This document shows positions 2,439-20,229 of a stretch of 24,000 nucleotides of DNA, piece after piece (within the stretch, counting starts at the first letter, position 1; each line of letters starts with the position of its first letter). A program made the position numbers and the translations under genes. The stretch is from Thaumarchaeota archaeon CSP1-1 (GTDB lineage Archaea; Thermoproteota; Nitrososphaeria; Nitrososphaerales; Nitrosopumilaceae): assembly GCA_001443365.1 (NCBI GenBank), contig LDXL01000004.1:166870-190869 (forward strand), written 5' to 3'. The notes under the pieces were generated by a model, which was given only the letters and a program-made list of their open reading frames with translations, did no database searches and had not been told where the DNA came from.

Positions 2439-2518
2439 TCAAATTATCTGTTATGTTGTTGAATAGAATTTTAAAAGATTTTACACAGTTATATTTAGAT
2501 AATAATTCTTAAAAATTA

Positions 2519-3493
2519 TTGAAAATCATTTTTCTGCTTTTATTAATTGGATTAGGATTTATTGATTATATTAGTGAAAACACTGCCAATTCAATAGCCT
2601 ACTTTCCTCCACCGTTAAAACAGATAGCAAGTGGAACAGCACCAGAAAATGTGATATGTGCTGAAGGCCTACAAATTATCCTAAAAAAATCAAGTGGAAT
2701 ACCCGCGTGTGTAAAACCTAGTAGTGTAGCCTCTCTTATTGAACGAGGATGGGGAATTCATGTTTTACCTGATTATATCAAAGATGAAAACAATAATTCA
2801 GAGATTTTTGACGATGGTTCATTTAGTATCACTACTGAAAACGTAAACTATTCAGATGACTATGTTGGATTTCTTGCACAACCTGAAGCTTCAGGATCAT
2901 ATCCAGGGATAGTTATGATTCATGAATGGTGGGGTCTTAATGATAACATAAAACAAATGGCCAAACACGTGGCTTCTCATGGTTACATAGTTCTTGCAGT
3001 TGATTTGTATGGGAAAGAACCTGCAACTACTGCCGATGAAGCACGACAGTTAATGTTATCATATGATTTGGAAAGAGGGATTGCTAACATGAATGATGCT
3101 TCAAATTTCCTTTTAGAAAACTATCAAGTTAATAACCTTGGATCTATTGGGTGGTGCTTTGGTGGAGGCCAGTCATTAAACCTTGCATTAAATAATGATG
3201 ATTTGAATGCCACCGTAATTTATTACGGACAGTTAACTACAGACGAATCTCAACTTTCATCAATTAATTGGCCAATTTTAGGTATATTTGCAGAGCTTGA
3301 TCAAGGAATTCCTGTTGGAACTGTCAATGAATTTGAAACTTCTCTTAATAATTTGGGAATAGAAAATGAAATTTACATTTATCCTGAAGTTAATCATGCT
3401 TTTGCTAATCCATCTGGCATGAGCTATGCTCCCGAGGAAACAAAGGATGCATGGGAAAAGACAATTATATTCTTAGAAGAACATTTGAAATAA
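2519..3493 (+). CDS. Dienelactone hydrolase-family alpha/beta hydrolase with N-terminal signal/anchor and a short Cys-pair module
   Basis: GIVMIHEWWGLNDNIKQMAKHVASHGYIVLAVDLYG, a nucleophile elbow GWCFGGG and NHAF (His) match the DLH family. Hydrophobic N-terminus MKIIFLLLLIGLGF. The TTG start is tentative. Confidence 0.8.
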   Translation: MKIIFLLLLIGLGFIDYISENTANSIAYFPPPLKQIASGTAPENVICAEGLQIILKKSSGIPACVKPSSVASLIERGWGIHVLPDYIKDENNNSEIFDDGSFSITTENVNYSDDYVGFLAQPEASGSYPGIVMIHEWWGLNDNIKQMAKHVASHGYIVLAVDLYGKEPATTADEARQLMLSYDLERGIANMNDASNFLLENYQVNNLGSIGWCFGGGQSLNLALNNDDLNATVIYYGQLTTDESQLSSINWPILGIFAELDQGIPVGTVNEFETSLNNLGIENEIYIYPEVNHAFANPSGMSYAPEETKDAWEKTIIFLEEHLK

Positions 3494-3505
3494 TTTTCTA
3501 GCAGA

Positions 3506-4912
3506 TTACAATGCTACTAAGGATGTGGGCTTCCTTACAACCATTTTTCCATATCCACGTTTTCCTATAACTTCAAAATTTTCTGCAACAACTGTTCCAC
3601 GTACAATGGTCTTGACGGGCCAACCTTTGAGATTCCATCCAGCATACACAATGTAGTCAGAAAATCCTCCAAATAGATCACTTGTGACTTTTTTTTCTTT
3701 TTTCAAATCAATCATTGTGATATCTGCATCTGAATCTTTTTCTAGTGAACCCTTATTTGGATACATTCCAAAAATTTTAGCAGCGTTCGTACTTGTAATC
3801 TGTGTTAATTTTTCAAGTGAAATCCTGTTCTTATTTACTCCCTCACTCAATAGTATAGGCAAAAGTGTTCCTATTCCAGGAAAACCGGCAAGAGCATCCC
3901 AAACATCATTTCCTCCTAGTTTTAGCTTCAGTTGGTTTGCAACATGATCAGTTCCAATTGTATTGATTTGTCCATCATGAATTGCATTCCAAACACTTTC
4001 TACATCCTTTGATGTCCTAATTGGTGGCATCACCTTTGCAAGATATCCTTCTTGCTTTTCATAAGATAAAGTCAGATAGTGAGGACATGTTTCTACAAAG
4101 ATCTTGGTACCATTTTTTTTCTCTTCTAATATCTGATTTAGTGCATCAGCTGAACCAATATGAACAAAGTATAATGTACAACCGCATTCTCTTGCAAATT
4201 TAGAAATTGTTTTTATCGATTTGACTTCAGATTGAGTAGATCTACTTTGAGACCATGCCGCAAGACCATCTTCATTTTTTTCCTTGGCAGTTTTGATACC
4301 ACAGGAACACATCTCATAATCTTCAGCATGAACTAAAACTGGACATCCCAATGATGCAGCGTTTTGAACAACTTTCTGAATTATTTCAGATGTTATCTCA
4401 ACTTTGGCCTCACGCAGAGAATTTGTACCAGGTTCCATATCCATGTAAACATGGCCAACATCTCCACCTAGATTCATGTATAGTTTGAATGAGGTTATCC
4501 ATTTATCAAGACAAAATTTCATTTCATCAATCTGTTGATTATTAAAAATTGAAGCATGAATGGAATAATCAATATAATGACTTTGGGAGCTTGCAATAAG
4601 TTGTGGTATCAATGAATTTTTGTATGATCCCCCCAGTCTAAGCATTCTCATCATTGTGGTGATTCCACCAATTGCTGCTGCATGAGACTCTGTTCCAGCT
4701 GCCTTTTCTATTGAAGAATAAACACCATAATGTACGTGGGGATCAATGACTCCGGGAATCGAAATCAATCCATTTCCATTTATTTTATTGTCACAAGATG
4801 GAACATCACTAGTAAAATCAACTATCTTTTCCTCATCGATGACGATGTTTTTGTTAACCATTCCTTGAGGAAGAATTACGTGCGAATCAACAATTACAGT
4901 ATCATATGTCAT
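3506..4912 (-). CDS. Cyclic amidohydrolase (dihydropyrimidinase/hydantoinase/dihydroorotase family)
   Basis: 468 aa with the metal-ligand signatures VIDPHVHYG (HxH), SFKLYM (carbamylated-Lys position), VHAED, VHIGS and GTDH. Confidence 0.8.
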   Translation of the reverse strand: MTYDTVIVDSHVILPQGMVNKNIVIDEEKIVDFTSDVPSCDNKINGNGLISIPGVIDPHVHYGVYSSIEKAAGTESHAAAIGGITTMMRMLRLGGSYKNSLIPQLIASSQSHYIDYSIHASIFNNQQIDEMKFCLDKWITSFKLYMNLGGDVGHVYMDMEPGTNSLREAKVEITSEIIQKVVQNAASLGCPVLVHAEDYEMCSCGIKTAKEKNEDGLAAWSQSRSTQSEVKSIKTISKFARECGCTLYFVHIGSADALNQILEEKKNGTKIFVETCPHYLTLSYEKQEGYLAKVMPPIRTSKDVESVWNAIHDGQINTIGTDHVANQLKLKLGGNDVWDALAGFPGIGTLLPILLSEGVNKNRISLEKLTQITSTNAAKIFGMYPNKGSLEKDSDADITMIDLKKEKKVTSDLFGGFSDYIVYAGWNLKGWPVKTIVRGTVVAENFEVIGKRGYGKMVVRKPTSLVAL

Positions 4913-4990
4913 CTATTTTTCTGAAAAGACTTCTCTGGGTTTTATTCGTTGAGTAAATGAATAAAAACAGATTCTTTTGTGGTAAGGGAA

Positions 4991-5062
4991 GGGCCGGTGG
5001 TTTAGTGGTATAACGCCGCGTTCGCAACGCGGATGTCGAGGGTTCAATTCCCTCCCGGTCCA
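4991..5062 (+). tRNA. tRNA-Ala (anticodon CGC)
   Basis: Hand-folded cloverleaf. Acceptor GGGCCGG/CCGGTCC includes the G3:U70 alanine identity pair. Anticodon stem CCGCG/CGCGG with loop TTCGCAA. T arm GAGGG-TTCAATT-CCCTC. Discriminator A. CCA is not encoded. Confidence 0.92.
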
Positions 5063-5105
5063 CTACCTAGAAACTATTATACATAAACCAAGAATATTGA
5101 TTTTC

Positions 5106-5468
5106 ATGAAGGTTTTCAATGGAAAACAAGCTGCAGAAGACTATATGTCAAGTCATACACTTGCATTTTCTACTCCAGAGTTGACCCTGATGAGATTTTC
5201 ATTTTGGTTAGGAGATATGGTTCCTGATCCAACTAAGAAAGAAAATAGTATACCAAGATTACTGACATTTGTTGAAGAAAAAGATTTTGAACCTGTTCAA
5301 ATTATTGATGATGAAAAATATGAACCAACAGGTGCGGTGAGGGGTTCTGGGATGTATGGCAATACTGCTCCTCAAACCAGTTCTAATACAAAATTTTGTT
5401 CTGAATGTGGAGGTAAAATTGCTTCAGCAGCAAGATTTTGTACTGAATGTGGTGCAACCCAAGTATAA
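5106..5468 (+). CDS. Hypothetical protein with C-terminal zinc-ribbon tail
   Basis: Ends in KFCSECGGKIASAARFCTECGATQV (C-x2-CG-x7-R-FC-x2-CG). I prefer ATG 5106 to the TTG at 5097 used by the ORF track. Confidence 0.6.
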   Translation: MKVFNGKQAAEDYMSSHTLAFSTPELTLMRFSFWLGDMVPDPTKKENSIPRLLTFVEEKDFEPVQIIDDEKYEPTGAVRGSGMYGNTAPQTSSNTKFCSECGGKIASAARFCTECGATQV

Positions 5469-5486
5469 TTTTTATTTATAATTTTT

Positions 5487-6029
5487 CTAAACTTTGTTTC
5501 CGCACTTTGTACAAAACTTTGCGTGTATTCTAAGTTCTGCACCACAACCTGTACAATGCATTCCACTACCTGGAGATCGTGATATTAATGAAGGATCTGG
5601 AGTTGGAAGTGTACCAGGTTGACTAAAACCTTGTTGGGCTGAAATTACTGAAGGTGGTGCACCTACTGGATTTTGATTAGTTCCAACACGTGCAGCGGAG
5701 GGTTGCATTCCCATTCCACCCATCATTCCTGGAGAACCCATACCAGGCATTAATCCAGGTGAATGGGTTCCACCTAGTGCTACACCCCCAGAAATTTTGT
5801 CAAGTGCTTTTTTCATTTCAAAAATAACTTTGATTGAAAGAAACTCAAGTGCAGAGTACGCAACAACATAATCACCTAGCTTTTGAAAAAATTGCTTATC
5901 AGTAAGTTTTCCATTTTTGTAAAGATTATTTGCATCAAGAAATGATTCATAGTATCCTTGTGACTGATCAAACAACGCATTTAATTTGTCTGTTAGAAGA
6001 TTTAATGTATCTATTTCACCAAGCGACAT
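5487..6029 (-). CDS. Hypothetical protein: helical N-domain, Gly/Met/Pro-rich linker, C-terminal zinc-ribbon tail
   Basis: 180 aa. The linker reads GGVALGGTHSPGLMPGMGSPGMMGGMGMQP. The tail reads MHCTGCGAELRIHAKFCTKCGNKV. Confidence 0.6.
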   Translation of the reverse strand: MSLGEIDTLNLLTDKLNALFDQSQGYYESFLDANNLYKNGKLTDKQFFQKLGDYVVAYSALEFLSIKVIFEMKKALDKISGGVALGGTHSPGLMPGMGSPGMMGGMGMQPSAARVGTNQNPVGAPPSVISAQQGFSQPGTLPTPDPSLISRSPGSGMHCTGCGAELRIHAKFCTKCGNKV

Positions 6030-6094
6030 GTGATTTTAATCTGACATTTCGAATATTAATTACTTTAGATTAAAAACGAAAAAATAGTACAAGT

Positions 6095-6436
6095 CTAGAC
6101 TTTTTCTAGTGCTCTTTCAATCATATTTTTGTAGGATTCTTTTGATGCAGCACCAACTTGCTGGGCAATAATCTGACCTTTACTGAAAATTGCTAGAGTA
6201 GGAATACTAAACACATTGTATTTTGATGCTAGTTCATTAGCGTGATCTACATTTACTTTGACAAAATCTACCTTGCCGTCGTATTCTTCTGATAGTTCTT
6301 CTACAACTGGACTGACCATTCTGCAGGGACCACACCATTCTGCCCAAAAGTCAACAAAAACGGGCATTGAAGATCTCATTACATCAGTTTCCCAACTCTT
6401 TGTGTCTGACACTTGCTTGACTGCCATTGTAAACAT
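6095..6436 (-). CDS. trxA: Thioredoxin
   Basis: Canonical WAEWCGPCRM active site, a cis-Pro region (SIPTLAIF) and typical length (113 aa). Confidence 0.92.
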   Translation of the reverse strand: MFTMAVKQVSDTKSWETDVMRSSMPVFVDFWAEWCGPCRMVSPVVEELSEEYDGKVDFVKVNVDHANELASKYNVFSIPTLAIFSKGQIIAQQVGAASKESYKNMIERALEKV

Positions 6437-6547
6437 AATTCATCCAAACATCCCTAAATATGTTCACACTATTTTGAAGCCAATTGAAGACTCAAATTGT
6501 TCTCAAAAAATTTAGGGTGTTTTCAAATTTGATGAATATATACTTAA

Positions 6548-7381
6548 ATGACCTTTTGGGAAATCTCAGATATGAGCTTCGAATCAAGGACGAAGAAATT
6601 AAGGGGTTCTGGCGGTTATATTATGGCCTCAATCAATGACGAACTACAAAGAAAAGGGAACTTGGGAGGGCCAGATTTATTTTTGGCGCCAGTTGGACGA
6701 ATTGATTCAGAGAAAATTTCAAAATTTTATTGTAATACTTGTGAAAAAGACTATGAAGGAGCTCCTAGGATCCAATTTGAAAATCCAAATGAGGAGGTTG
6801 CAGAAAATCTAATTCTTGTAGAGAAGGGGCAATACATTTGCACAACTTGCGGCTCTACTCTAGCAGAATACAGAGAATTCAAAAAACCAAACGAGGCAAT
6901 AGATACAGGCAATGCAAGACCAATGACTCCACGATATGATTCAATAATATCACCTTCTAAACCAATTCAACAATCATTTCCACCACCTAGTCCAACTGTT
7001 ACAATTCCTGACTTTGATTCTCAGATGCTTCCAAGCTCTAATTTACAAGAAGATATTGTACGCCAATCTCAGCAAACTAATTCATCTTTTAATGCAATCG
7101 CAGGAATGACAGTTTATGACGAGAAAGCCAAAAGAATGGGAATAGTAAAACAAGTAGGTGTTGATGCAACTCAAAATGTCGTACTAATTATAACAAAAAA
7201 TGATGGAAGTGAAGTAAGTGTAAAATGGAATCAAATTAAAAAAATCGGAGAGATAATTCTGCTCGGCGAAGGACAAGCGGGAAATACTGGCACAATACAG
7301 TCAGTCTTAAAATGTTCTAGCTGCGGTTTTGATAACAAGCCAGGCTCTAAATTCTGTCAGAGTTGTGGCTCTCAAGTATAG
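6548..7381 (+). CDS. Zinc-ribbon / PRC-barrel domain protein with C-terminal zinc-ribbon tail
   Basis: N-terminal C-x2-C...C-x2-C pair (FYCNTCEKD...YICTTCGST), a P/S/Q-rich linker, a PRC-barrel-like segment (MTVYDEKAKRMGIVKQVGVDATQNVVLIITKNDGSEVSVKWNQIKKIGEIILLG), and the tail LKCSSCGFDNKPGSKFCQSCGSQV. The true start may be ATG 6572, because the AATATATA box at 6535-6542 is too close to 6548. Confidence 0.65.
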   Translation: MTFWEISDMSFESRTKKLRGSGGYIMASINDELQRKGNLGGPDLFLAPVGRIDSEKISKFYCNTCEKDYEGAPRIQFENPNEEVAENLILVEKGQYICTTCGSTLAEYREFKKPNEAIDTGNARPMTPRYDSIISPSKPIQQSFPPPSPTVTIPDFDSQMLPSSNLQEDIVRQSQQTNSSFNAIAGMTVYDEKAKRMGIVKQVGVDATQNVVLIITKNDGSEVSVKWNQIKKIGEIILLGEGQAGNTGTIQSVLKCSSCGFDNKPGSKFCQSCGSQV

Positions 7382-7405
7382 CAGGTAACAAACAAAGGTT
7401 TTCTG

Positions 7406-8149
7406 ATGAAATCAAGTATGGAACATAAAATGAAAAGCGGTATGGTTCCAAAGGGAATTCTCAAGGATATCATTATTGTTGTAATTGGTGTTCTAATAAT
7501 ATGGATGGGTCTTCGAGTAGTCTTTGGTACTGAAAATCCATTTTATGTTGTTTCAAGCGGAAGTATGATACCTGAGTTACAGGTATTTGATGTACTAGTT
7601 GTACAAGGAAACGATCCATTTGAATCAGTAAAAATTGGCGATGTAATTGTCTTTGACCGACCTGAAGGTCAAGATCGTGTAATTGTGCATAGGGTTGCTG
7701 CAATACTCAATGAAGATCCTTATACCATCAGAACCAAAGGAGATGCAAACCCAGCTTCAATTCCGGGAACTGACTTTCCAATAACAGAAGAAGAATACAT
7801 TGGAAAAGTTGCATATGTAATACCACAAGTTGGATATGTAACTAGAGTTCTCACTCCTCCAATTAATTATATTATTATTGCTATAATTATTGCTGTTATG
7901 ATTGGCAAACAATTAAGGAAAACTAAAAAGGAACATGAATTATCTGATTCATTTGATTTTGATTCAAACAATAAAGACAATCAACCGCCTAAAGAGTTAG
8001 CTGACTTTGATATTCCAGATGATAAGGAATACTCTAAAGATTTTAAAAAAACTGAAAGTTCAGAACCTGAATTTTATAATGAAAAAATTTCAGAATCAAA
8101 GGATTATACTGAAGCCCAATCAAAAAATAATAAAGACGATAAAAAATAA
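7406..8149 (+). CDS. Signal peptidase I, archaeal/ER Sec11 type (S26B), with extra C-terminal TM and charged tail
   Basis: N-terminal TM helix, catalytic Ser box SSGSMIPEL, His box VIVHRV and the GDAN box. A second TM (INYIIIAIIIAVMIG) is followed by a ~80-aa K/D/E/S-rich tail. Confidence 0.8.
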   Translation: MKSSMEHKMKSGMVPKGILKDIIIVVIGVLIIWMGLRVVFGTENPFYVVSSGSMIPELQVFDVLVVQGNDPFESVKIGDVIVFDRPEGQDRVIVHRVAAILNEDPYTIRTKGDANPASIPGTDFPITEEEYIGKVAYVIPQVGYVTRVLTPPINYIIIAIIIAVMIGKQLRKTKKEHELSDSFDFDSNNKDNQPPKELADFDIPDDKEYSKDFKKTESSEPEFYNEKISESKDYTEAQSKNNKDDKK

Positions 8150-8197
8150 AATCTAAACTTTCTTCTAACTAAACCAATCACAGAATCATAAGATCAT

Positions 8198-8205
8198 TTA
8201 TAATT
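8198..8205 (+). promoter_or_regulatory. Putative TATA box of the cupredoxin gene
   Basis: TTTATAAT ends about 21 nt upstream of ATG 8227. Other genes in this window show the same geometry. Confidence 0.35.
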
Positions 8206-8226
8206 AGATAAATTTTAACGCATTTT

Positions 8227-8703
8227 ATGGCCGCAATCGATAAAGCAGCTATTGCTTGGACTATTGCCATTGTCGCAGTAGGGGTAGGTATTGCATCTAT
8301 AGGTGGTCAATTTCAATCACCTGTTGCTACAACAGTTCCTAATACTGCACCTCCGGTAATGGAAGAACCTAGCAAACCAGTAATGGAAGAACCTACTGGA
8401 CCAATGACAGTTGAGGTATCAATACCCGCTGGAACATCAGTACCTGGTTGTGAAGAGACCAACAAGTGCTTCATTCCATCATCGGTATCCATCATGAAAG
8501 GCGATACTGTAGTTTGGTCAAATGATGACACTGCTGCACACACTGTTACAAGTGGAAGTCCAGCAAATGGACCAAGTGGAACGTTTGATAGTAGTTTGTT
8601 GATAGGTGGAAAATCCTTTGAGCATACGTTTGATTCATCAGGTTCAATTGATTATTTCTGCATGGTTCACCCATGGATGACAGGAAGCGTTCAAGTTTCC
8701 TAA
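8227..8703 (+). CDS. Membrane-anchored blue copper protein (plastocyanin/amicyanin-like cupredoxin)
   Basis: N-terminal TM anchor, a Pro/Glu-rich linker, then a cupredoxin domain. Type-1 Cu ligands: TAAHTVTS (His) and YFCMVHPWM (C-x2-H-x2-M, amicyanin-type spacing). Confidence 0.87.
   Translation: MAAIDKAAIAWTIAIVAVGVGIASIGGQFQSPVATTVPNTAPPVMEEPSKPVMEEPTGPMTVEVSIPAGTSVPGCEETNKCFIPSSVSIMKGDTVVWSNDDTAAHTVTSGSPANGPSGTFDSSLLIGGKSFEHTFDSSGSIDYFCMVHPWMTGSVQVS
8353..8400 (+). repeat. 24-bp tandem duplication inside the cupredoxin linker (encodes PVMEEPSK / PVMEEPTG)
   Basis: ccggtaatggaagaacct (8353-8370) and ccagtaatggaagaacct (8377-8394) match at 17 of 18 positions and are exactly 24 nt apart, in frame. 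Confidence 0.85.
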
Positions 8704-8710
8704 TCTATCA

Positions 8711-8723
8711 TTTTTTATTTTTT
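8711..8723 (+). terminator. Oligo-T tract, candidate archaeal terminator after the cupredoxin gene
   Basis: TTTTTTATTTTTT begins 8 nt after the stop codon, in the gap between convergent genes. Archaeal RNA polymerase terminates at oligo-T. Confidence 0.3.
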
Positions 8724-8758
8724 ACCTAAGAAATTCAAATATAGGATAGATTTTTGAG

Positions 8759-10267
8759 CTAGTCTTCTGAATTTAATCTGAATACTCTTTTAAAATATTC
8801 TGACGGTTCGTTTATTTCTTCATTGTCATCTTTAACGCCAGCTAAGTTCTTTGCTAATTGTCTCTTGTAACCTAGTTGCATTTGACGAGCAATCTGAATT
8901 CTTTGTGCCTGTGGGGAACCTGCGCCGTGCATGGATTCTGTAAGATATCCTACAGCATTTCTTCCCATAGTCATGTTCTCAATTAATCGAAAAATTCTCA
9001 TTCTGTTTTCAACATCAACTCCTTTTCTTCCTACCAAGTATTTTTTCAAAAGAGGACCTACTTCAGGATGTCTAAAGTCTTTTTCAGACGGCATAGTTAC
9101 CACAAGTCCTCCAGCAATATCCTGTGCAAGTCTACCTATTTCATATGGAAATCTGGTAACGTTATGCTTGCAAACTTGAGCTAACATGTCATCGTTAAGA
9201 TACACTCCTGATTTCAGTTTATGTGCTTGATATGAAGATGCTATACCTGCTGCGAATATAGATTCGTTAAGATGAGTCATCTCGACTAATTTATCTTTGA
9301 TATGAGAAACATTTGGTATGCCATTGTAATCAGATATTGTTGATGCAGCACCAATTAATACATCACCTAGTCCGGTTTTACAAACATAGCTTCTTCTGTG
9401 ATAACAAGTGAATCTTTCAATAAGCATTGATGCAAATTCGTATTCCCCGTCCATGAAGATTTTGTCCCATGGAATAAACACATTATCAAGAATTATCATT
9501 GCCTCCTGTCCTGCATATAGAGCATTTCCAGAATCTATATCGCCACCCTCCATGCTTCGGGTGTCACACGACTGGCGACCATAAATGTAGGTTATACCTG
9601 GTGCATCTGCTGGGAATGCTCCCACTAAAGCATAGTCTTTGTCATTTTCTGTAAGTCTTAAGGTAGGCATTATTATTATCCAGTGCGAATTGATACAACC
9701 AGTTTGATGCGCTTTTGCACCAGTAACGTAAACTCCTTTGTCATCTCTTTTTACAACGTGAACAAACATGTCAGGATCAACTTGTTCTGCAGGACCTTTA
9801 CTCCTATCCCCTTTAGGATCAGTCATTGCACCACCAATGACAAAGTTCTCATTTTGCATCATTTTTATAAAATCAAGCAATCTTTTATGATATTTTGTTC
9901 CATGTTTTTCATCTATTTCATATGTAGTAGAATGAAGTGAGTTTATTGCATCCATGCCAACACAACGTTGAAAGCATGTTCCAGTGTTTTGTCCCATCTT
10001 TCTTTGCATCTTATTTTGGAAAACTAAATCTTGAGCACTTTCAGCAATGTGTAAGAAACGATTTACCCTTTTACCACTGATGGAAGATTGCGCTGACGCA
10101 AGTTCTTCTTCTCTTACTGCTAAATCATACGTCTCAGCTACTGCATTAATTGAAGGACGAATTATTGGATGTTCTACAGGATCTTTTATCTCTTCACCAA
10201 ATAGGAAAATTTTGAGTTTTCTTCCACGTAGACTATCAATGTATTCTTTGCCAGTTCTGATCGGCAT
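8759..10267 (-). CDS. abfD: 4-hydroxybutyryl-CoA dehydratase / vinylacetyl-CoA isomerase
   Basis: 502 aa. GTC98FQRC102VGMD (C-x3-C) and CYH290RRSYVC296K fall where the [4Fe-4S] ligands of clostridial AbfD lie (Cys99, Cys103, His292, Cys299). It is adjacent to the ADP-forming CoA ligase, as I recall for Nitrosopumilus maritimus. Confidence 0.9.
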   Translation of the reverse strand: MPIRTGKEYIDSLRGRKLKIFLFGEEIKDPVEHPIIRPSINAVAETYDLAVREEELASAQSSISGKRVNRFLHIAESAQDLVFQNKMQRKMGQNTGTCFQRCVGMDAINSLHSTTYEIDEKHGTKYHKRLLDFIKMMQNENFVIGGAMTDPKGDRSKGPAEQVDPDMFVHVVKRDDKGVYVTGAKAHQTGCINSHWIIIMPTLRLTENDKDYALVGAFPADAPGITYIYGRQSCDTRSMEGGDIDSGNALYAGQEAMIILDNVFIPWDKIFMDGEYEFASMLIERFTCYHRRSYVCKTGLGDVLIGAASTISDYNGIPNVSHIKDKLVEMTHLNESIFAAGIASSYQAHKLKSGVYLNDDMLAQVCKHNVTRFPYEIGRLAQDIAGGLVVTMPSEKDFRHPEVGPLLKKYLVGRKGVDVENRMRIFRLIENMTMGRNAVGYLTESMHGAGSPQAQRIQIARQMQLGYKRQLAKNLAGVKDDNEEINEPSEYFKRVFRLNSED

Positions 10268-10287
10268 ATAAAAGGTTGCTCGAAGTT

Positions 10288-10296
10288 GTATAAATA
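10288..10296 (-). promoter_or_regulatory. Putative TATA box of the dehydratase gene (minus strand ATTTATAC)
   Basis: On the minus strand, TTTATAC is followed by exactly 20 nt and then ATG 10267. This implies its own promoter and a leaderless or near-leaderless mRNA. Confidence 0.4.
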
Positions 10297-10335
10297 TTCA
10301 GATCATAGTAAAAATGATTTTTGGAATATAGATAG

Positions 10336-12432
10336 TCAGAGTCCTATTCTAACATCTAAAATCTTACAGCCTTTGCCTTGTTCCATTACTAATACTGGAT
10401 TCATGTCAAGCTCTTTGATTTCTTTAAAATCTGTCACAAGTTGTGAGAGTTTTTGTATGCACTCAGATAATTTAGCTTTGTCTGAGGGCTTTTCTCCTCT
10501 AACACCTTCTAGAATTTTTTTCATTTTAATTGAAGATATCATGTCATCAGCTTCTTTGTCAGTTACTGGTGCTAATTTGAAAGTTACATCCTTTAAGACT
10601 TCAACATAAATTCCACCCATTCCAAGCATAATCACTGGTCCCATTCCAGGTTCAAGTTTTGATCCAATAATCATCTCCTTTCCTCCTTTGATCATTTCAA
10701 CGATTAAAACTCCCTTAATCTCAGCTTTTTTGTTATATTTTTTGGCATTTGAAACGATTTCTTCAAAGGCAGATTTTACTTCGTTGTCATTTGTGAGATT
10801 AACTTTTACACCACCTGCATCAGATTTATGAATTATTTGTGGGGATACAATCTTCATTACCACTGGATAACCAATATTCTTTGCAATTTTTACTGCATCA
10901 TTTTCTGTTTTGGCTAGAGTACTCTTTGGAAGGGGGAATCCGTATGCACGCAATACTTCTTGTCCTTCCTCTTCAAGAAGATTTGGTCTTCCATCTTTTT
11001 TGACTTTATCAATAATTTTCTTGGCTGTTGCTTTGTTAACTTTGAATTTTGAAATTTTTCCAGGAGGGGATGAAATCCATTTTGTAAATCTTAGCATGGC
11101 AGTTAATGTCCTTATGGCACCTTCTGCGTAGGTATAATATGGAATTCCTCCTTCGGCAAGAATTTTACGATTTGTAATGCCTTCATCAAGACCCATTAGA
11201 CTCGCAAGCATTGTTTTTTTGTATTTTTTTGACATTGCTACTATAACTTCTGCAAGTTTATCATAATCTAATGTTCCTGATGGAGTACACATTGAGATAA
11301 CAGAACCAACATTTGGATGACCTAAAACATGGTCCAAAACGTTACTGAACCGATTAAAATCTGCATCACCAACTATGTCAACAGGATTTCTTGAGCTTCC
11401 CCAAGGTGGAATTACTGCATCAATCTTTGATCTAATGTTATCTATTTTGGCCATTTTAATTCCATTTTTTGAGCATGCATCAGTTGAAATGATTGCAGGT
11501 CCCCCTGCATTTGATACAATTACAAGTTCCCCTTTTGTTGGAAGTGGCTGTTTTGAAAATGCAACTGCATAATCAAATAATTCTTCCATTGTATCAACTC
11601 GGATAGCTCCAGATTGTTTTAGTAGAGCATCATAGATTTCATCAGAACCCATAAGAGCACCAGTATGAGACATTGCAGCTTTTGCACCTTCTGGACTTCG
11701 ACCAGATTTTAGAACTAGAACTGGTTTCTTTAATTTCCGTGTAATGTTTTTACAAACTTTAAGAAATTCTTGTCCATTACCCATATCTTCAAGATACATG
11801 ACAATAACTTTGGTCTGTTTATGATTAGCTAGCATATTGAGAACATCAATTTCGTTCATGACTGCCTTATTCCCCATACTTACCACAGCTGAAAATCCAA
11901 TGCCTTGTGCACTTGCATCTTCACAAAGTGCAGCACATATAGCTCCGCTTTGAGATACTAGAGCTATTTCACCAGACTTTGGGGTGATTTTTAGAAATGT
12001 AGAATTCATCATTGTTTTTGGATCAAGATTCATCACTCCAAGACAATTAGGTCCTATTACTTGGATTTTGTATTTTTTTGCTATGTCCTTGAGATGCTGT
12101 TCTAATTTTGCACCTTCTTCATCTACTTCTTTGAAACCAGCAGTGATTATAATTACGCCCTTTACTTTTTTCTTACCACATTCTTCTAGAACAATTGGAA
12201 CGATAGTATTTTTTGTAACAATTACTGCAAGATCAATTGGTTTTGGTACATCAAGAACAGATTTGTAGGCTTTTTTGTAAAAGACTGTGGGTCTGGTAGG
12301 ACTGATGGGAAAAACTGTACCTTTAAAACCGTTCATGATATTTGATGTAATGGTACGTCCAACACTACCTCTTTTATCAGATGCACCAATAATTGCAATC
12401 GATTTTGGAGAAAGGAAAACTGATTCTGTCAT
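10336..12432 (-). CDS. ADP-forming acyl-CoA synthetase, fused alpha-beta (NDP-forming ACD family); probable 4-hydroxybutyrate-CoA ligase (ADP-forming)
   Basis: 698 aa. CoA-binding Rossmann segment IAIIGASDKRGSVG, phosphohistidine loop AAMSHTGALMGS, and a C-terminal ATP-grasp half (YPVVMKIVSPQIIHKSDAGGVKVNL). Substrate assignment rests on adjacency to the dehydratase and on the characterised N. maritimus enzyme (Koenneke et al., PNAS 2014). Confidence 0.85.
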   Translation of the reverse strand: MTESVFLSPKSIAIIGASDKRGSVGRTITSNIMNGFKGTVFPISPTRPTVFYKKAYKSVLDVPKPIDLAVIVTKNTIVPIVLEECGKKKVKGVIIITAGFKEVDEEGAKLEQHLKDIAKKYKIQVIGPNCLGVMNLDPKTMMNSTFLKITPKSGEIALVSQSGAICAALCEDASAQGIGFSAVVSMGNKAVMNEIDVLNMLANHKQTKVIVMYLEDMGNGQEFLKVCKNITRKLKKPVLVLKSGRSPEGAKAAMSHTGALMGSDEIYDALLKQSGAIRVDTMEELFDYAVAFSKQPLPTKGELVIVSNAGGPAIISTDACSKNGIKMAKIDNIRSKIDAVIPPWGSSRNPVDIVGDADFNRFSNVLDHVLGHPNVGSVISMCTPSGTLDYDKLAEVIVAMSKKYKKTMLASLMGLDEGITNRKILAEGGIPYYTYAEGAIRTLTAMLRFTKWISSPPGKISKFKVNKATAKKIIDKVKKDGRPNLLEEEGQEVLRAYGFPLPKSTLAKTENDAVKIAKNIGYPVVMKIVSPQIIHKSDAGGVKVNLTNDNEVKSAFEEIVSNAKKYNKKAEIKGVLIVEMIKGGKEMIIGSKLEPGMGPVIMLGMGGIYVEVLKDVTFKLAPVTDKEADDMISSIKMKKILEGVRGEKPSDKAKLSECIQKLSQLVTDFKEIKELDMNPVLVMEQGKGCKILDVRIGL

Positions 12433-15938: not shown

Positions 15939-16820
15939 ATGATGTTAAACTACGACTATCCAATGTATAGACCTCCTTCTGAAGCTAAATCTCTAATATT
16001 CCAAGTAACTCTAGGATGCTCATTTAACCAGTGTTCTTTTTGTGATATGTATAGATCAAAAGAATATTCTGAAAGGCCATGGGAGGAAATTAAGATGGAA
16101 ATCGATATGATGGCTAAACAGATGCCTGATACACCAAGAATTTTTCTTGCAGATGGTGATGCATTGAACCTTCAAACTGACTATATGATAAAGATTGTAA
16201 ACTATCTTTACAAAAAATTTCCTAATTTAGAACGAGTGTCATGTTATGCAATGCCAATGAATTTACTCAAAAAAACTCCTGAAGAATTAAGAAAAATGTA
16301 TGAAGCTGGACTTAAAATGATGTACATAGGAATCGAGAGTGGCTCCGATATTGTATTAAAAAAAGTAACAAAAGGAGCAACATCTCAGACAATCATTAGA
16401 GCTTGTCGTAAGGCAATAGATGCAGGTTTCACTATTTCATGTATGGTTATACTTGGATTAGGTGGTAAGACCTACACTAAAGAGCACATAAGAGGAACAG
16501 CGGAGGTACTAAGCGCTGCATCCCCTCAATACTCTGCTGCACTTACCTTAATCATTGAACCTGGGGTGAAAGATGAATTCATGACAAAGTTTGGTGAACC
16601 CTTTATCCCAATTTCAGATTCAGAAGCTCTAGATGAGCTAGAGGATTTAGTTAGTAAAATTGAAACAAAGGAAGAGATTATTTTTAGAGCAAACCATGGA
16701 TCCAATGCATACACTATCAAAGGAACCTTCCCACAAGACAAACAATCAATGTTAGAAAAGATTTCATGGATGAAACAACATCCAGAAGCTGTTAGACCTG
16801 AAGGTCTTCGAGGATTCTAA
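15939..16820 (+). CDS. Radical SAM enzyme with non-canonical CX4CX2C cluster motif
   Basis: LGC35SFNQC40SFC43DMY (numbering from TTG 15915), a GGE-like LADGDAL, and IGIESGSD typical of the radical-SAM TIM barrel. ATG 15939 (MMLNYDYPMYRPPSEA) is preferred over the TTG 15915 of the ORF track. Confidence 0.8.
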   Translation: MMLNYDYPMYRPPSEAKSLIFQVTLGCSFNQCSFCDMYRSKEYSERPWEEIKMEIDMMAKQMPDTPRIFLADGDALNLQTDYMIKIVNYLYKKFPNLERVSCYAMPMNLLKKTPEELRKMYEAGLKMMYIGIESGSDIVLKKVTKGATSQTIIRACRKAIDAGFTISCMVILGLGGKTYTKEHIRGTAEVLSAASPQYSAALTLIIEPGVKDEFMTKFGEPFIPISDSEALDELEDLVSKIETKEEIIFRANHGSNAYTIKGTFPQDKQSMLEKISWMKQHPEAVRPEGLRGF

Positions 16821-16830
16821 AAAATTATTT

Positions 16831-17094
16831 TCATAATTGAGCTAAAAGCGGTTTTAGATTTTCTGGTAGTTCAGGTAGTTCAGTATGGCTTTCGTTGTTT
16901 TCCAAAACTTCAGGTCCAATTCTCCTTACTTTTTGAGTTCCAATAAGAGTATCAATCCCTCTTTGAACATCTTTTTCTGAAAATACTCTCTTTAATTTTT
17001 CAATTAAAACCTCTTTATTTTCATATTTTTTTATAGCATATTGTATTAGGGTCATTTTTTCATCCTTAGATAGTTCGGCCATTTGTAGATTCAT
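16831..17094 (-). CDS. Small hypothetical acidic protein
   Basis: 87-aa ORF 36 nt downstream of the Lrp/TRASH regulator gene on the same strand. Predicted helical. No recognisable motif. Confidence 0.45.
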   Translation of the reverse strand: MNLQMAELSKDEKMTLIQYAIKKYENKEVLIEKLKRVFSEKDVQRGIDTLIGTQKVRRIGPEVLENNESHTELPELPENLKPLLAQL

Positions 17095-17130
17095 AATTTG
17101 TGCAGAATAAAAAACATTCCTTATTTCAGA

Positions 17131-17565
17131 TTATTTTTCAAGATTTTGCTTGGAAAGAGAATTTATTCTTCCACCATACTTGTCTTTGTATAATGTTCGA
17201 CATGAAGTACAACAAAAGAATCTCTCATACCGACCAAACTTCAAAACTTTTGGCTGGCTAGTTATCTCACCATCACAATAGTCACAGTTAACATTTACTG
17301 CAAGACCAGTTTGAATATGCGATTCTGGAGTTTTTATAACAGAATCTTCGGATATTTGTTTGTGAATTTTTTTATCAATCTTTTTCATATCTATGATCGG
17401 GGATACTGACTTTATCAAACCCAAGTTAACCAGCCTTTGATATCTAGACTTTATTGTTGGGGTGCTTATTGATAATTCTCTTGATATTTCTCGAAAGGAT
17501 TTTCTACCATCCTTCATCAATGATTTGATTATTGCTACATCTGTTTTATCTAATTTATGAGGCAA
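17131..17565 (-). CDS. Transcriptional regulator: Lrp/AsnC-type HTH fused to a C-terminal TRASH metal-binding domain
   Basis: The N-terminus LDKTDVAIIKSLMKDGRKSFREISRELSISTPTIKSRYQRLVNLGLI is an Lrp/AsnC HTH. The C-terminus NCDYCDGEITSQPKVLKFGRYERFFCCTSC fits the TRASH consensus C-x2-C-x20-C-x3-C (Ettema et al. 2003). A TTG start is forced by an in-frame upstream stop and the need to include the HTH. Confidence 0.78.
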   Translation of the reverse strand: MPHKLDKTDVAIIKSLMKDGRKSFREISRELSISTPTIKSRYQRLVNLGLIKSVSPIIDMKKIDKKIHKQISEDSVIKTPESHIQTGLAVNVNCDYCDGEITSQPKVLKFGRYERFFCCTSCRTLYKDKYGGRINSLSKQNLEK

Positions 17566-17585
17566 TGATTTGGTACACCTTGTTT

Positions 17586-17614
17586 GATATTTAATGATTA
17601 GACTTTACAAATGA
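17586..17614 (-). promoter_or_regulatory. Conserved 29-nt promoter/operator element, copy 1 (upstream of the TRASH regulator gene)
   Basis: The minus strand reads TCATTTGTAAAGTCTAATCATTAAATATC, then 20 nt, then TTG 17565. 26 of 29 positions are identical to copy 2. The 3' part (TTAAATAT) sits where a TATA box is expected. Confidence 0.5.
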
Positions 17615-17618
17615 CAAC

Positions 17619-17849
17619 TTAGTTATTGTGATAGAGTTTTTTGATCAATTCCTTTTTTGTTGGAACTCCTATAAACTCCAACTTGTCATCTATTACAATT
17701 CCAGGAGCAGTAAAGATTGGATATTTTTGAAGGTATTCTGGTTTTTCTGTAACATCTATAGTTGTATACAAAACCCCAAGCTCATCAAACATCTTTTCAA
17801 CTATATTACAATTTGAACATGCAGGAGTTGTAAGAATTTCAACCTTCAT
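17619..17849 (-). CDS. Small thioredoxin-fold CxxC protein (Thioredoxin_3 / redox-active disulfide protein 2-like)
   Basis: 76 aa. MKVEILTTPAC11SNC14 with a cis-Pro region TAPGIVIDDKLEFIGVP. Its start ATG overlaps the stop of the upstream YHS gene (ATGA, 17846-17849). Confidence 0.75.
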   Translation of the reverse strand: MKVEILTTPACSNCNIVEKMFDELGVLYTTIDVTEKPEYLQKYPIFTAPGIVIDDKLEFIGVPTKKELIKKLYHNN

Positions 17850-17983
17850 GATTTCTCAAATTGTTCTGGATTTCTCTCAAAGGCCCATTTACAGCTTGCA
17901 CAACAAAAATAGAATTTCCTACCGTTATAGTCTAAAGAATCATGTTTTTCATCAACTTCCATGCCACAAACAGGATCTTTCAT
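17846..17983 (-). CDS. YHS/TRASH-domain mini-protein (45 aa), putative metallochaperone
   Basis: Not in the ORF track because it is under 60 aa. Hand translation: MKDPVCGMEVDEKHDSLDYNGRKFYFCCASCKWAFERNPEQFEKS, a near-consensus YHS domain (DPVCGM.V......Y.G..YYFC...C...F..NP..). ATGA overlaps with the genes on both sides. Confidence 0.72.
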   Translation of the reverse strand: MKDPVCGMEVDEKHDSLDYNGRKFYFCCASCKWAFERNPEQFEKS

Positions 17984-18978
17984 ACAGTAACCTTTGCCTC
18001 CCTTTTATTTGCAAAATACCATGCTATTGGAAAGACAATTAATCCAGAAAATATTATTGGGATGATCTCCTGTGGTATGACAAAATCAAACATTTTTTGA
18101 TGAATGTGTTCTCCTATATGAAATTCGACTGGAAGGCCAGTCATAGATACAAGATTATTCCAACCTATGTGTACTATTGTACTCTCATACCAATCATGTC
18201 CTCCAGGAAAACCGTTAATTATTAAAAATGAGCCAATGAAAATTAGCATCCATCCTGTAATTTTCTCAATTTTGATTCTGTTAGTGGTCAAGCCCTTTGT
18301 TGCATTAATTCCTAAGATAGCAAGTAAGGAAAATAAAATTAATGGTATTGCTCTTCCTATTCCATGTACTAGGCCAAGCGAGGAACCAATCTCTAAACTT
18401 CCACTTCCTGCAATGTATATCAAAAGCCAATAAAACATTGGATTAGGACATCCAACACCTGCATTGCCAAGTAAAACCCCCATTAGATAAGATTTTGAAT
18501 ATTCGCCTCTATTCTGGATAAACTTTGGAGTCCTTGAATACGATGGCATCTTTAGTGTGATTAATTTTAGTTGTGATAGTCCAAAAATGAATCCAGAGAT
18601 TCCAGCTATGAGAAACATAATGGTAGAGAATTGATCAAGGGAAGTAGTTTTTCCTAAGGTTGCCACTCCTAAACCATACAAAGTTATTGTTGTTGTGAGT
18701 CCTGCACCAAAAAGCAATGCCATTGTTAAACCCTTTTTGTAACCTTTTCCCATACTTAGTGGAATTATTATGAAAACTAGTGGTAGAGTACAAGGAAGAA
18801 TTATCATTGAAAGGCCAGCAACATAAGATATTATCAACCAAGAGGGATAGGAAAAATCGCTTCCAGCTTTTACAGAGATATCACTAGTTAATGAAAAGAT
18901 TACACCAAGAAATATGAAAGAAAATAAGATGAATGCTGTTAAGATCCCTGATTTTTTGGCAAGTACTGATTGAGACAT
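17980..18978 (-). CDS. CcdA/DsbD-family transmembrane thiol-disulfide electron-transfer protein with His-rich C-terminal loop
   Basis: 332 aa, polytopic. Two membrane-embedded Cys motifs, IILPC63TLPL and GVGC177PNPMF, resemble the CcdA motifs (SPCxLP / TPCxGP). The loop at residues 259-296 carries H261, H270, H287, H291 and H293. Confidence 0.6.
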   Translation of the reverse strand: MSQSVLAKKSGILTAFILFSFIFLGVIFSLTSDISVKAGSDFSYPSWLIISYVAGLSMIILPCTLPLVFIIIPLSMGKGYKKGLTMALLFGAGLTTTITLYGLGVATLGKTTSLDQFSTIMFLIAGISGFIFGLSQLKLITLKMPSYSRTPKFIQNRGEYSKSYLMGVLLGNAGVGCPNPMFYWLLIYIAGSGSLEIGSSLGLVHGIGRAIPLILFSLLAILGINATKGLTTNRIKIEKITGWMLIFIGSFLIINGFPGGHDWYESTIVHIGWNNLVSMTGLPVEFHIGEHIHQKMFDFVIPQEIIPIIFSGLIVFPIAWYFANKREAKVTV

Positions 18979-18998
18979 GATTTGAGATATTATTCCCA

Positions 18999-19027
18999 GA
19001 TACTTAATGAATAGACTTTACAAATGT
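18999..19027 (-). promoter_or_regulatory. Conserved 29-nt promoter/operator element, copy 2 (upstream of the CcdA-like operon)
   Basis: The minus strand reads ACATTTGTAAAGTCTATTCATTAAGTATC, then 20 nt, then ATG 18978. The spacing is the same as for copy 1. Confidence 0.5.
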
Positions 19028-19046
19028 AAAAATCTAGGAAGAGGAA

Positions 19047-19121
19047 TGGGCCCACGGGGATTTGAACCCCGGACCTTCGCCGTGTAAGGGCGACGTCATA
19101 ACCGAACTGGACCATGAGCCC
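19047..19121 (-). tRNA. tRNA-Val (anticodon UAC)
   Basis: Hand-folded from the reverse complement. Acceptor GGGCTCA/TGGGCCC, anticodon stem TCGCC/GGCGA with loop CTTACAC, T arm CGGGG-TTCAAAT-CCCCG, discriminator A. CCA is not encoded. Confidence 0.9.
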
Positions 19122-19182
19122 AGCAAAGTACCTTGTTAAAATCCATTTAAACTTTGAGAATCAGTAAAACAAAAAATTAGAA

Positions 19183-20229
19183 ATGGGATCGTTTTCAAAT
19201 CAGGTCATGGTTGGCATAACATTTTTTTGCAGTCCAATTGGTCTAGGTCATGCCGCAAGAGATTCAGCAATTGTTCAACATCTTAAAGAGATTCCAATAA
19301 AATTTGTTACAGGTGATGCTGCAGCAAAATTTCTAAAACAATTAGAATTTAACGTTGAAGACGTATACATTCCACCACAATTTGTTATCAAAAACGGTTT
19401 GTTACAAAATTCACTAAGGTGGCTCTGGAAATATTACAAATATTACAAAGACTGTAAGGATATTTCCTCAAGTATAATTAAAAATGAAAAACCTCAAGTA
19501 ATTGTAAGCGATGAGGATTTTGCGTCTCTTACAGTTGCACAGGAACAAAATCTATCTTCAGTGCTAATTACAGATGTTCTAGAAACCAGATTTACAAAAG
19601 GAATTGGGTCTATAATCGAGAGAAAAATGAATCGATCTATGAAAGACATTATGAAAAAATGTGATGTTATTATTTTGCCTGAAGAGGGAATAGATGAAGA
19701 TAATGTAAGACGAGTAGGTCCAATTGTAAGAACAACCAATTATTCTAGAGAGGAGTTAAGAAAGAAATTTTCTTTTAACAAAAAGACAATTGTTGTTAGT
19801 GTTGGTGGTACAGATGCAGGAAAATTTTTAATTGAAAAAACAATTGAATCTTATACCAAAATAAAAAATGATGTAGAATTGGTAATAGTTTCAGGACCAT
19901 CACTGAAAAAAGATTACGGAGAAAATATTCGAAATTTGGGGTTTGTAAACAATTTACATGAAATAATATTTGCTTCGGATCTAATTGTATCTCTTGGAGG
20001 AAAATCTACAATTGATGAGTCAAAGTCATATGGAACTCCTGGTATTTTCATACCAATAAAAAATCATTTTGAACAAGAAGATAACGCCATGAGGGAGGGG
20101 TTCTCACATGAGGACGTAAATAAATTGGATTCTTTGATTTCTGAAAAACTTGGAGAAAAACGAAAGCCCAAAAGTTATGATGGAGCCAAAAAAGCGGCCG
20201 AAGTAATAAAAGATATCTTTCCAAAATGA
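19183..20229 (+). CDS. GT-B fold glycosyltransferase (GT1/GT28, MurG/UDP-glycosyltransferase-like)
   Basis: N-terminal FFCSPIGLGHAARDSAI (G-x-GH acceptor-domain motif). C-terminal donor-domain motifs VSVGGTDAG and GGKSTIDESKSYGTPGIFIP...EQEDNA. Confidence 0.7.
   Translation: MGSFSNQVMVGITFFCSPIGLGHAARDSAIVQHLKEIPIKFVTGDAAAKFLKQLEFNVEDVYIPPQFVIKNGLLQNSLRWLWKYYKYYKDCKDISSSIIKNEKPQVIVSDEDFASLTVAQEQNLSSVLITDVLETRFTKGIGSIIERKMNRSMKDIMKKCDVIILPEEGIDEDNVRRVGPIVRTTNYSREELRKKFSFNKKTIVVSVGGTDAGKFLIEKTIESYTKIKNDVELVIVSGPSLKKDYGENIRNLGFVNNLHEIIFASDLIVSLGGKSTIDESKSYGTPGIFIPIKNHFEQEDNAMREGFSHEDVNKLDSLISEKLGEKRKPKSYDGAKKAAEVIKDIFPK

Follow-up and report, generated by a model that had tools for sequence, protein, structure and literature searches.

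CopR-type regulators and the locus in Thaumarchaeota archaeon CSP1-1

The closest described relatives of the system considered here are the archaeal CopR proteins, copper-responsive regulators that combine a helix-turn-helix (HTH) domain with a TRASH domain. This analysis concerns a pair of near-identical promoter elements in a 24,000-nt stretch of Thaumarchaeota archaeon CSP1-1 (contig LDXL01000004.1, positions 166,870 to 190,869), called the window throughout. One element precedes an operon for a CcdA/DsbD-type membrane thiol-disulfide transporter, a YHS metal-binding protein and a thioredoxin-like protein (ccdA-YHS-trx), while the other precedes the adjacent gene for an HTH-TRASH regulator. 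To judge from the sequence, both 29-nt elements are probably (rough probability 0.78) an archaeal core promoter combined with an operator for this regulator, which would govern a self-regulated, metal-responsive set of genes.

Ammonia-oxidising archaea depend heavily on copper, which they need for ammonia oxidation, and the transcriptional control of their metal homeostasis is essentially unmapped. No operator or regulon of this sort was found described for them in the searchable literature, where copper-responsive promoter motifs have been proposed for Nitrososphaera viennensis only; the motif given there differs from the palindrome described below (PMC7785015).

In Pyrococcus furiosus, the HTH-TRASH protein CopR (PF0739) has been located by chromatin immunoprecipitation with sequencing (ChIP-seq), electrophoretic mobility shift assay (EMSA) and footprinting on the site TTNNCAWWWTGNNAA, directly upstream of the recognition element (BRE) for transcription factor B (TFB) and between the divergent copR and copA promoters (PMC7830388). 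The promoters activated by this CopR have deviant TATA boxes, copper leads to repression of copR and activation of copA, and Cu releases the protein from DNA in EMSA (PMC7830388). Three other members of the group are taken here as cited in the P. furiosus study: SSO2652 (CopR/CopT) of Saccharolobus solfataricus, VNG1179C of Halobacterium salinarum and CopR of Thermococcus onnurineus. According to that account, all are copper-responsive HTH-TRASH proteins whose genes adjoin one for a small TRASH/YHS chaperone (CopM/CopT) and which control the CopA exporter (PMC7830388). The same source gives activation as the direction of control in Saccharolobus, Halobacterium and Pyrococcus, and repression, of copA and of the regulator itself, in T. 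onnurineus (PMC7830388).

The locus in the window resembles the P. furiosus system in several respects. An Lrp/AsnC-type HTH at the N-terminus and a TRASH domain at the C-terminus are found in both regulators. Both operators are semi-palindromic, with half-sites TTNNCA/TGNNAA, and lie directly upstream of the BRE. In both systems there are sites at several promoters, that of the regulator gene included, one site can serve two divergent promoters, and regulated promoters carry deviant TATA boxes. The differences lie in the layout, which is tandem in the window and divergent in P. furiosus, in the lack of a His-rich tail on the present regulator and of a CopA ATPase nearby, and in the targets, which are the ccdA-YHS-trx operon here and genes for DsbA-like, cupredoxin, HtrA and BNR propeller proteins in relatives. 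The described Saccharolobus, Halobacterium and Thermococcus systems control the CopA exporter, unlike this one, although their small chaperone has its counterpart in the 45-aa YHS protein of the operon. Since cop clusters pair CopA with a CopM/CopZ chaperone and only a CopM-like YHS/TRASH protein is present here, the regulator is probably best described, from its sequence context, as CopR-like and not as a cop-cluster CopR.

A second comparison is offered by the Lrp/AsnC regulators (LrpA, Ss-LrpB, LysM, Ptr2), whose winged HTH superimposes on that of the regulator at about 1 Å over 48–50 residues. They recognise, as the present regulator would, AT-rich palindromic boxes of 13–15 bp close to the core promoter, and many of them regulate their own genes. 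The present regulator, however, is not a feast/famine regulatory protein (FFRP) in the strict sense: it has no RAM/ACT-like effector domain, and its presumed effector is a metal instead of an amino acid.

Two promoter elements and the palindrome within them

Read on the minus strand, 17614 to 17586 is TCATTTGTAAAGTCTAATCATTAAATATC and 19027 to 18999 is ACATTTGTAAAGTCTATTCATTAAGTATC. The two 29-mers agree at 26 of 29 positions, differing at positions 1, 17 and 25, and have the 15-mer CATTTGTAAAGTCTA in common, as the original prediction had stated. The likeness is real: the window holds two matches to a degenerate 28-mer spanning both copies where 0.00 were expected, and in 100 dinucleotide-preserving shuffles of it the count never reached two. 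The claimed distance of 20 nt between element and start codon is likewise exact for TTG 17565 (regulator) and ATG 18978 (CcdA-like protein). The CAAATCA near the start codon is shared too, yet with a 1-nt offset between the two copies (CAAATC before ATG, CAAATCA before TTG). The 15-mer has no further match in the window at up to 2 mismatches; that statement holds for the window, while relatives carry further sites.

The 15-mer itself does not emerge as the functional unit when upstream regions from orthologous loci are aligned. What is conserved is a 14-bp palindrome, TTTACAWWTGTAAA, of which the 15-mer comprises the right half-site and the next 5 nt. On the ccdA side the unit begins at 19030, 3 nt further 5' than 19027, because the earlier coordinates cut the palindrome's left half. 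The parts of the two promoters are as follows.

17586–17614, minus strand: 29-nt element, copy 1, the regulator-gene promoter
18999–19027, minus strand: 29-nt element, copy 2 (right half-site, BRE region and TATA box), the ccdA promoter
19017–19030, no strand assigned: O1, perfect 14-bp palindrome TTTACATTTGTAAA (19030 to 19017 on the minus strand), ending 38 nt before the ccdA start codon
19008–19016, minus strand: 9-nt segment GTCTATTCA between palindrome and TATA box, the presumed BRE/TFB contact region
19000–19007, minus strand: TATA box TTAAGTAT of ccdA-YHS-trx, at -29 to -22 from the ATG; deviant, with G at position 5
17604–17617, no strand assigned: O2, TTGTCATTTGTAAA (17617 to 17604 on the minus strand), right half perfect, left half with 2 mismatches
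17587–17594, minus strand: canonical TATA box TTAAATAT of the regulator gene, at -29 to -22 from the TTG

O2 begins 1 nt past the trx stop codon, with its end 38 nt short of the regulator TTG; its degenerate left half, TTGYCA, is conserved across the clade with the tandem architecture. At ccdA promoters the GT immediately 3' of the palindrome is conserved, and the 9–10 nt from palindrome to TATA box recurs at other regulon promoters. The window has no third site: its one other match to the palindrome (2 mismatches, at 11990) is within chance expectation.

That the 3' third of the element is a TATA box agrees well with its position, -29 to -22, where the TAAATA core of the lineage peaks: in 612 other upstream regions from related loci, 37 of its 71 occurrences start at -28/-27. 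The deviant box TTAAGTAT is found once in these 612 regions but recurs at ccdA and at several other palindrome-bearing promoters. Since the TATA boxes of the window stand at the lineage's normal distance from the start codon, the sequence implies leaderless or nearly leaderless mRNAs, and transcription should therefore begin at, or within a few nucleotides of, the start codon. Among orthologues the regulator starts with TTG, GTG or ATG at one aligned position, again with the TATA box at -29 to -22. By the same reading of the sequence, the regulator mRNA of many lineages would be leaderless and begin with a codon other than AUG, an unusual combination.

Conservation and specificity of the palindrome

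Orthologous loci were gathered by way of regulator homologues and by scanning metagenomes and genomes with CcdA as anchor, giving 167 loci and 1.1 Mb. When their intergenic regions are aligned, the upstream part of the element stands out as a strong phylogenetic footprint, at 0.90–0.92 identity where its flanks reach 0.34–0.41. Across 69 distinct ccdA promoters, mean pairwise identity is 0.41 in the 12 nt that precede the palindrome, 0.92 in the palindrome (14 nt), 0.57 in the BRE region (9 nt), 0.72 in the TATA region (9 nt) and 0.39 in the spacer from TATA box to start codon (16 nt). The regulator promoters of tandem and convergent loci give the same picture, with 0.81 in the palindrome, 0.35 in its upstream flank and 0.38 in the TATA-to-start spacer. 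The palindrome is perfect in 50 of the 69 ccdA promoters. Its end lies 34–40 nt before the ccdA start in 68 of them, with one at 55 nt, and the mode of 38 is the value seen in the window. At regulator promoters the corresponding distance is 36–38 nt in tandem and convergent loci and 30–31 nt in divergent ones, and 42 distinct promoters carry the palindrome 30–38 nt before the regulator start, as would be expected of an operator at the regulator's own promoter. The identical spacing noticed in the window is thus a general property of the system.

The palindrome is also specific. In 1.12 Mb of related DNA, 113 sites with at most 1 mismatch fall at ccdA, regulator or propeller promoters, and most of 37 other distinct sites precede open reading frames (ORFs) in the same islands. 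The 612 other upstream regions lack the palindrome, the regulon islands excepted. When viral contigs were scanned with the perfect 14-mer as a trial, many unrelated sequences matched by chance.

These figures bear on whether the two elements are alike through a recent promoter duplication or conversion, or as ordinary strong promoters, with no specific regulation behind them. The identity in the window does run beyond the palindrome through BRE and TATA box (26/29), and shared ancestry within the tandem clade is plausible. As the sole account of the likeness, however, such a reading is very unlikely. The palindrome is missing from the other upstream regions outside the islands, its identity is about 0.9 against 0.35–0.4 in the flanks, it occurs at both promoters of the convergent clade even though the BRE and TATA segments differ there, and unregulated paralogous ccdA operons are without it.

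The original prediction also considered that the CAAAT next to the start codon may be a second half-site. This motif occurs in 11 of 69 ccdA and 2 of 22 regulator promoters against a 5% background, and its conservation is limited to close relatives; the candidate was rejected. Nitrosopumilus, which had been named as kin, is not the nearest group: the closest named genomes are Nitrosarchaeum metagenome-assembled genomes (MAGs), with 81–87% CcdA identity.

Association with the regulator gene

Co-occurrence was scored in 82 non-redundant related loci with enough flanking sequence. Wherever the regulator gene is adjacent, the palindrome stands at ccdA (40/40); where it is not, the palindrome is present in 7 of 42 loci and absent from 35. 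Fisher's test gives p = 1.6e-16 for this association, a value that ignores kinship among loci. The association holds across rearrangements of the genes. Tandem loci, such as that of the window, have two. Divergent loci with an intergenic region of 82–83 bp have a single central palindrome between two opposed TATA boxes, which serves both promoters, and those with 127 or 303 bp have two. Convergent loci have one per promoter. In one lineage (L033) the regulator gene lacks a separate promoter and is co-transcribed, and in Nitrosotenuis a regulator gene unlinked from ccdA keeps two palindromes in front of it.

The arrangements also help to judge whether the inverted repeat acts in RNA, folding into a hairpin at which the trx or tRNA-Val transcript from upstream is terminated or processed. 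Its location 1 nt past the trx stop codon and 15 nt past tRNA-Val would suit such a role, but the idea is the most improbable of those considered. The stem would consist of 6 A-U-rich pairs around a 2-nt loop, with no T-run after it. A combined sigma-70 and terminator scan, of a kind not suited to archaea, is silent at both elements and at the palindrome, and an Rfam scan of 16800–19300 by E-value returned tRNA-Val only. The divergent arrangement, moreover, puts the palindrome between two promoters, where it would not be transcribed, and the distance that is fixed is the one to the downstream TATA box, not those to the ends of upstream genes.

Operons of the ccdA-YHS-trx type without the palindrome have the canonical TATA box GATTAAATAT. 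Two ccdA-YHS-trx loci occur together in seven genomes, and in six of these (L214/L248, L219/L267, L280/L223, L216/L266, L237/L245 and L285/L246) just one of the two carries the palindrome; the palindrome-free copy usually shows a canonical TATA box, GATTAAATAT or GTTAAATAT. The presence of both types in one genome means that the palindrome-free type is a paralogous operon, and it is probably constitutive.

Proposed mechanism and direction of control

An autoregulated regulon comprising the operon and the adjacent TRASH regulator gene, as originally predicted, is supported by the footprint, the position of the TATA boxes, the co-occurrence and the CopR precedent. The anatomy of promoter and operator, its conservation, its co-occurrence with the regulator gene and the spread of sites over several promoters are shown by the sequences; from these features we infer that the adjacent regulator binds, which metal it senses and in which direction it acts. 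A dimer of the 144-aa HTH-TRASH protein would bind the palindrome TTTACAWWTGTAAA across the BRE region, 9 nt upstream of the TATA box. The one regulator would thereby act on two promoters, that of ccdA-YHS-trx through the perfect palindrome and that of its own gene through the weaker site. Metal bound at four cysteines of the TRASH domain, most likely Cu(I), would alter the effect of the regulator on the recruitment of TATA-binding protein (TBP) and TFB at BRE and TATA box. As with P. furiosus CopR, the regulator would activate the ccdA promoter and repress or dampen its own. This direction is favoured because regulator promoters have a canonical TATA box, TTAAATAT or ATAAATAT, whereas ccdA and several other regulon promoters have the weak-looking TTAAGTAT and its relatives. 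Read-through from the operon promoter probably provides a second feedback route to the regulator gene, since the 53 nt between trx and that gene contain no oligo-T run.

A pure repressor is a serious alternative, to which we give a considerable chance, short of even. In that case the regulator would sit by or over the BRE and block TFB and TBP at both promoters until metal on the TRASH domain releases it. The palindrome does abut the BRE region, T. onnurineus CopR is reported to repress copA and itself, and Cu frees P. furiosus CopR from DNA in EMSA (PMC7830388). The site, on the other hand, lies upstream of BRE and TATA box and not over the TATA box or start site. Most archaeal repressors act over the TATA box or the start site. 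In addition, palindrome-bearing ccdA promoters have a non-canonical TATA box that is rare elsewhere and their unregulated paralogues have GATTAAATAT, the pattern of promoters that depend on an activator. In a conceivable mirror-image variant, the regulator with metal bound would repress a system for acquiring copper; the 7- to 16-fold induction of a DsbD and BNR gene pair of N. viennensis under Cu limitation would fit it (PMC7785015).

Several observations weigh against activation by a copper-sensing regulator acting through this operator. The nearest experimental homologues disagree in direction, activator in P. furiosus and repressor in T. onnurineus. The centre of the palindrome measures 2 nt (14 bp) against 3 nt (15 bp) in the P. 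furiosus site. The argument from weak TATA boxes to activation is weakened by the propeller and cupredoxin promoters, which have canonical-looking ones. No CopA ATPase lies nearby, so that the gene content leaves copper not established as the signal. The N. viennensis pair is, by analogy, a lead towards another signal, since it is induced by limitation of copper and not by excess; the signal might be scarcity. The p value of the co-occurrence ignores phylogeny, yet the recurrence of the link in four arrangements and several genera argues for independence. Seven palindrome-bearing loci have no regulator gene within 3–5 kb, and locus L050 of a close relative (4130–5406; 95% CcdA identity) has lost the adjacent regulator gene while keeping a perfect ccdA palindrome. 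At L050 a regulator encoded elsewhere or another factor must therefore be invoked.

The last two points are what would be expected if a different transcription factor bound the palindrome and the adjacent HTH-TRASH protein were merely a co-regulated target. We regard this as improbable. It would leave the occurrence of the palindrome in all 40 regulator-bearing loci, and in all four arrangements, without a reason, as well as its presence at the own promoter of the unlinked Nitrosotenuis regulator. Furthermore, the half-sites and the BRE-adjacent position match the CopR site, the domain architecture is the same, and neither the recognition-helix residues nor the palindrome vary across the regulator family.

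L050 has also lost an 87-aa ORF that otherwise follows the regulator gene, a radical-SAM gene coming directly after trx, and represents a natural regulator-deletion variant.

Genes of the cluster

The genes of the cluster and its upstream neighbour are listed here.

17980–18978, minus strand: ccdA, CcdA/DsbD-type membrane thiol-disulfide transporter, 332 aa, first gene of the operon (Pfam DsbD_TM, 7.7e-9; NCBIfam DsbD subfamily)
17846–17983, minus strand: YHS/TRASH metal-binding protein, 45 aa, candidate CopM-like chaperone (Pfam YHS, 1.8e-16)
17619–17849, minus strand: trx, thioredoxin/glutaredoxin-like protein, 76 aa, CSNC motif (Pfam Thioredoxin_3, 8.6e-13; NCBIfam MJ0307-family thioredoxin)
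17131–17565, minus strand: HTH-TRASH regulator, 144 aa (Pfam matches, invariant cysteines, AlphaFold2 (AF2) model, structure matches to the HTH)
19046–19122, minus strand: tRNA-Val(TAC), upstream bound of the ccdA promoter, ending 15 nt before O1

The regulator begins with an AsnC/Lrp-type winged HTH at residues 5–52 (Pfam HTH_24, 5.8e-14; HTH_AsnC-type, 9.4e-13), which has sequence matches in the PDB to LrpC, PH0140 and LrpA; Foldseek matches to the protein are confined to this domain, at about 1 Å root-mean-square deviation over 48–50 residues. The TRASH domain occupies residues 93–129 (Pfam Arc_trans_TRASH, 3.1e-8). Its cysteines are arranged as CX2CX20CX3C, read as CDYC-X20-CCTSC, which fits the pattern C-X2-C-X19-22-C-X3-C, and Cys94, 97, 118, 119 and 122 are invariant in 36 regulator homologues. 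The AF2 model (mean predicted local distance difference test score, pLDDT, 74) predicts the HTH, a disordered linker at 53–90 and then the strands and helix of a TRASH domain. Pfam gives no match to PF01037 (AsnC_trans_reg/RAM), and the model shows no RAM domain.

In the CcdA-like protein, which ends in a His-rich C-terminal extension, DsbD_TM spans residues 50–219, and the motifs LPCTLP (Cys63) and GCPNP (Cys177) are invariant. One conserved Cys thus falls in each of the two transmembrane repeats, as in CcdA/DsbD proteins. The YHS gene overlaps both ccdA and trx by 4 nt. In the tandem arrangement a conserved ORF of 87 aa, without Pfam or NCBIfam match, lies 3' of the regulator gene (16831–17094, minus strand in the window), and the start of a homologue is also found 3' of trx in one divergent locus (L026).

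The remainder of the window holds typical thaumarchaeal genes, for example one for a 4-hydroxybutyryl-CoA dehydratase-like HpaB protein. No P-type ATPase (CopA) is recognisable by size or Pfam domains among its 15 ORFs of at least 200 aa, and a megablast search of plasmids with the 2.2-kb cluster gave no match.

Further sites in related genomes

Beyond the operon and the regulator gene, the palindrome marks other promoters. At seven loci a gene for an F510_1955-like BNR beta-propeller lies by the regulator and has TTTACAAATGTAAA about 46 nt before its start (L013:1499-2464, L021:4847-5816, L012, L018–L020 and L022); the protein has 301 aa and is membrane-anchored. This propeller gene is absent from the 24-kb window. 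Marine lineages are richer still, with 9–10 palindromes per ~10 kb in L277 (Marine Group I SCGC AAA799-D11; island at 1500–10900) and L276, and similar islands in L272, L274, L279 and L280. Each of these sites lies 9–10 nt upstream of a TATA box. In L277 and L276 the genes that follow them are ccdA, the regulator gene, several for DsbA-like thioredoxins and others for a cupredoxin, an HtrA/PDZ protease and Met-rich, Zn-ribbon and membrane proteins of 200, 73 and 69 aa, respectively. From their gene content, the marine islands look like a multi-operon module for envelope redox and copper handling.

At some promoters two palindromes are paired, 17, 28 or 43 bp apart (L006:2520-2612, L288:4899-4955, L277:9876-9917). 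Such pairs may, by analogy with a proposal for octameric CopR, point to binding that is cooperative or of a higher order.

A bolder reading, which we put forward tentatively and consider doubtful as it stands, is that the palindrome defines an undescribed regulon of ammonia-oxidising archaea. A TRASH sensor would then drive a whole envelope module, made up of the CcdA reductase, the YHS chaperone, DsbA-like oxidoreductases, cupredoxin, HtrA protease and BNR propeller, through weak-TATA TTAAGTAT promoters that depend on the regulator. The bacterial ScsABCD and DsbD/DsbC/DegP copper-stress responses offer a parallel, as they too combine a DsbD-type reductase, DsbA- or thioredoxin-like partners, an HtrA protease and metal-linked control. 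The parallel would be one of content only, since regulator type, promoter type and phylogeny are unrelated. ScsB, as it is discussed in a study of copper limitation, is a DsbD homologue that handles Cu(I) (PMC7785015).

A possible link to copper within ammonia-oxidising archaea comes from N. viennensis, where a gene of the DsbD family and its neighbour, a "sialidase" (BNR) gene, both induced 7- to 16-fold, are among the genes that respond most strongly to copper limitation, while no response is reported for the DsbD-family genes of Nitrosopumilus maritimus (PMC7785015). The N. viennensis pair resembles the pairing of ccdA and propeller genes in relatives of the window. Its homology to the operon is not established, the best 120 homologues all being from Nitrosopumilales.

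If the proposed reading is true, it would explain why there is a copper response at the DsbD locus in some lineages and none in those with only the palindrome-free paralogue. Should the signal be copper, through scarcity or excess, the system would be a switch that ties copper availability to extracellular protein folding and copper handling. Apart from this bolder reading, the main one extends CopR-type regulation, so far characterised in Thermococcales, Sulfolobales and haloarchaea, to another archaeal phylum, with an envelope thiol-redox and cupredoxin module as target set in place of a copper exporter. The locus supplies an operator sequence with fixed geometry, a candidate regulator and a candidate regulon, and its natural controls are at hand in the palindrome-free paralogous operons and in the variant that has lost the regulator gene.

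Minor observations

In L001/L002:2807-4001, from two samples, ccdA lacks residues 53–121 through an internal deletion and is split into separate ORFs, and 2 bp are gone from the operator on the regulator side, where TTTGAAG replaces TTTGTAAAG. These lesions may represent decay of the system.

An HTH-TRASH paralogue (55% identity) is encoded in a Nitrososphaera MAG (L287:5001-5447) inside a cobalamin cluster (cbiD, cbiG, cbiC, cbiX). It is not linked to ccdA and has no palindrome upstream. NVIE_004340 of N. viennensis is found in the same cobalamin-cluster context, and the L287 paralogue may be a family member with a link to cobalt or corrinoids.

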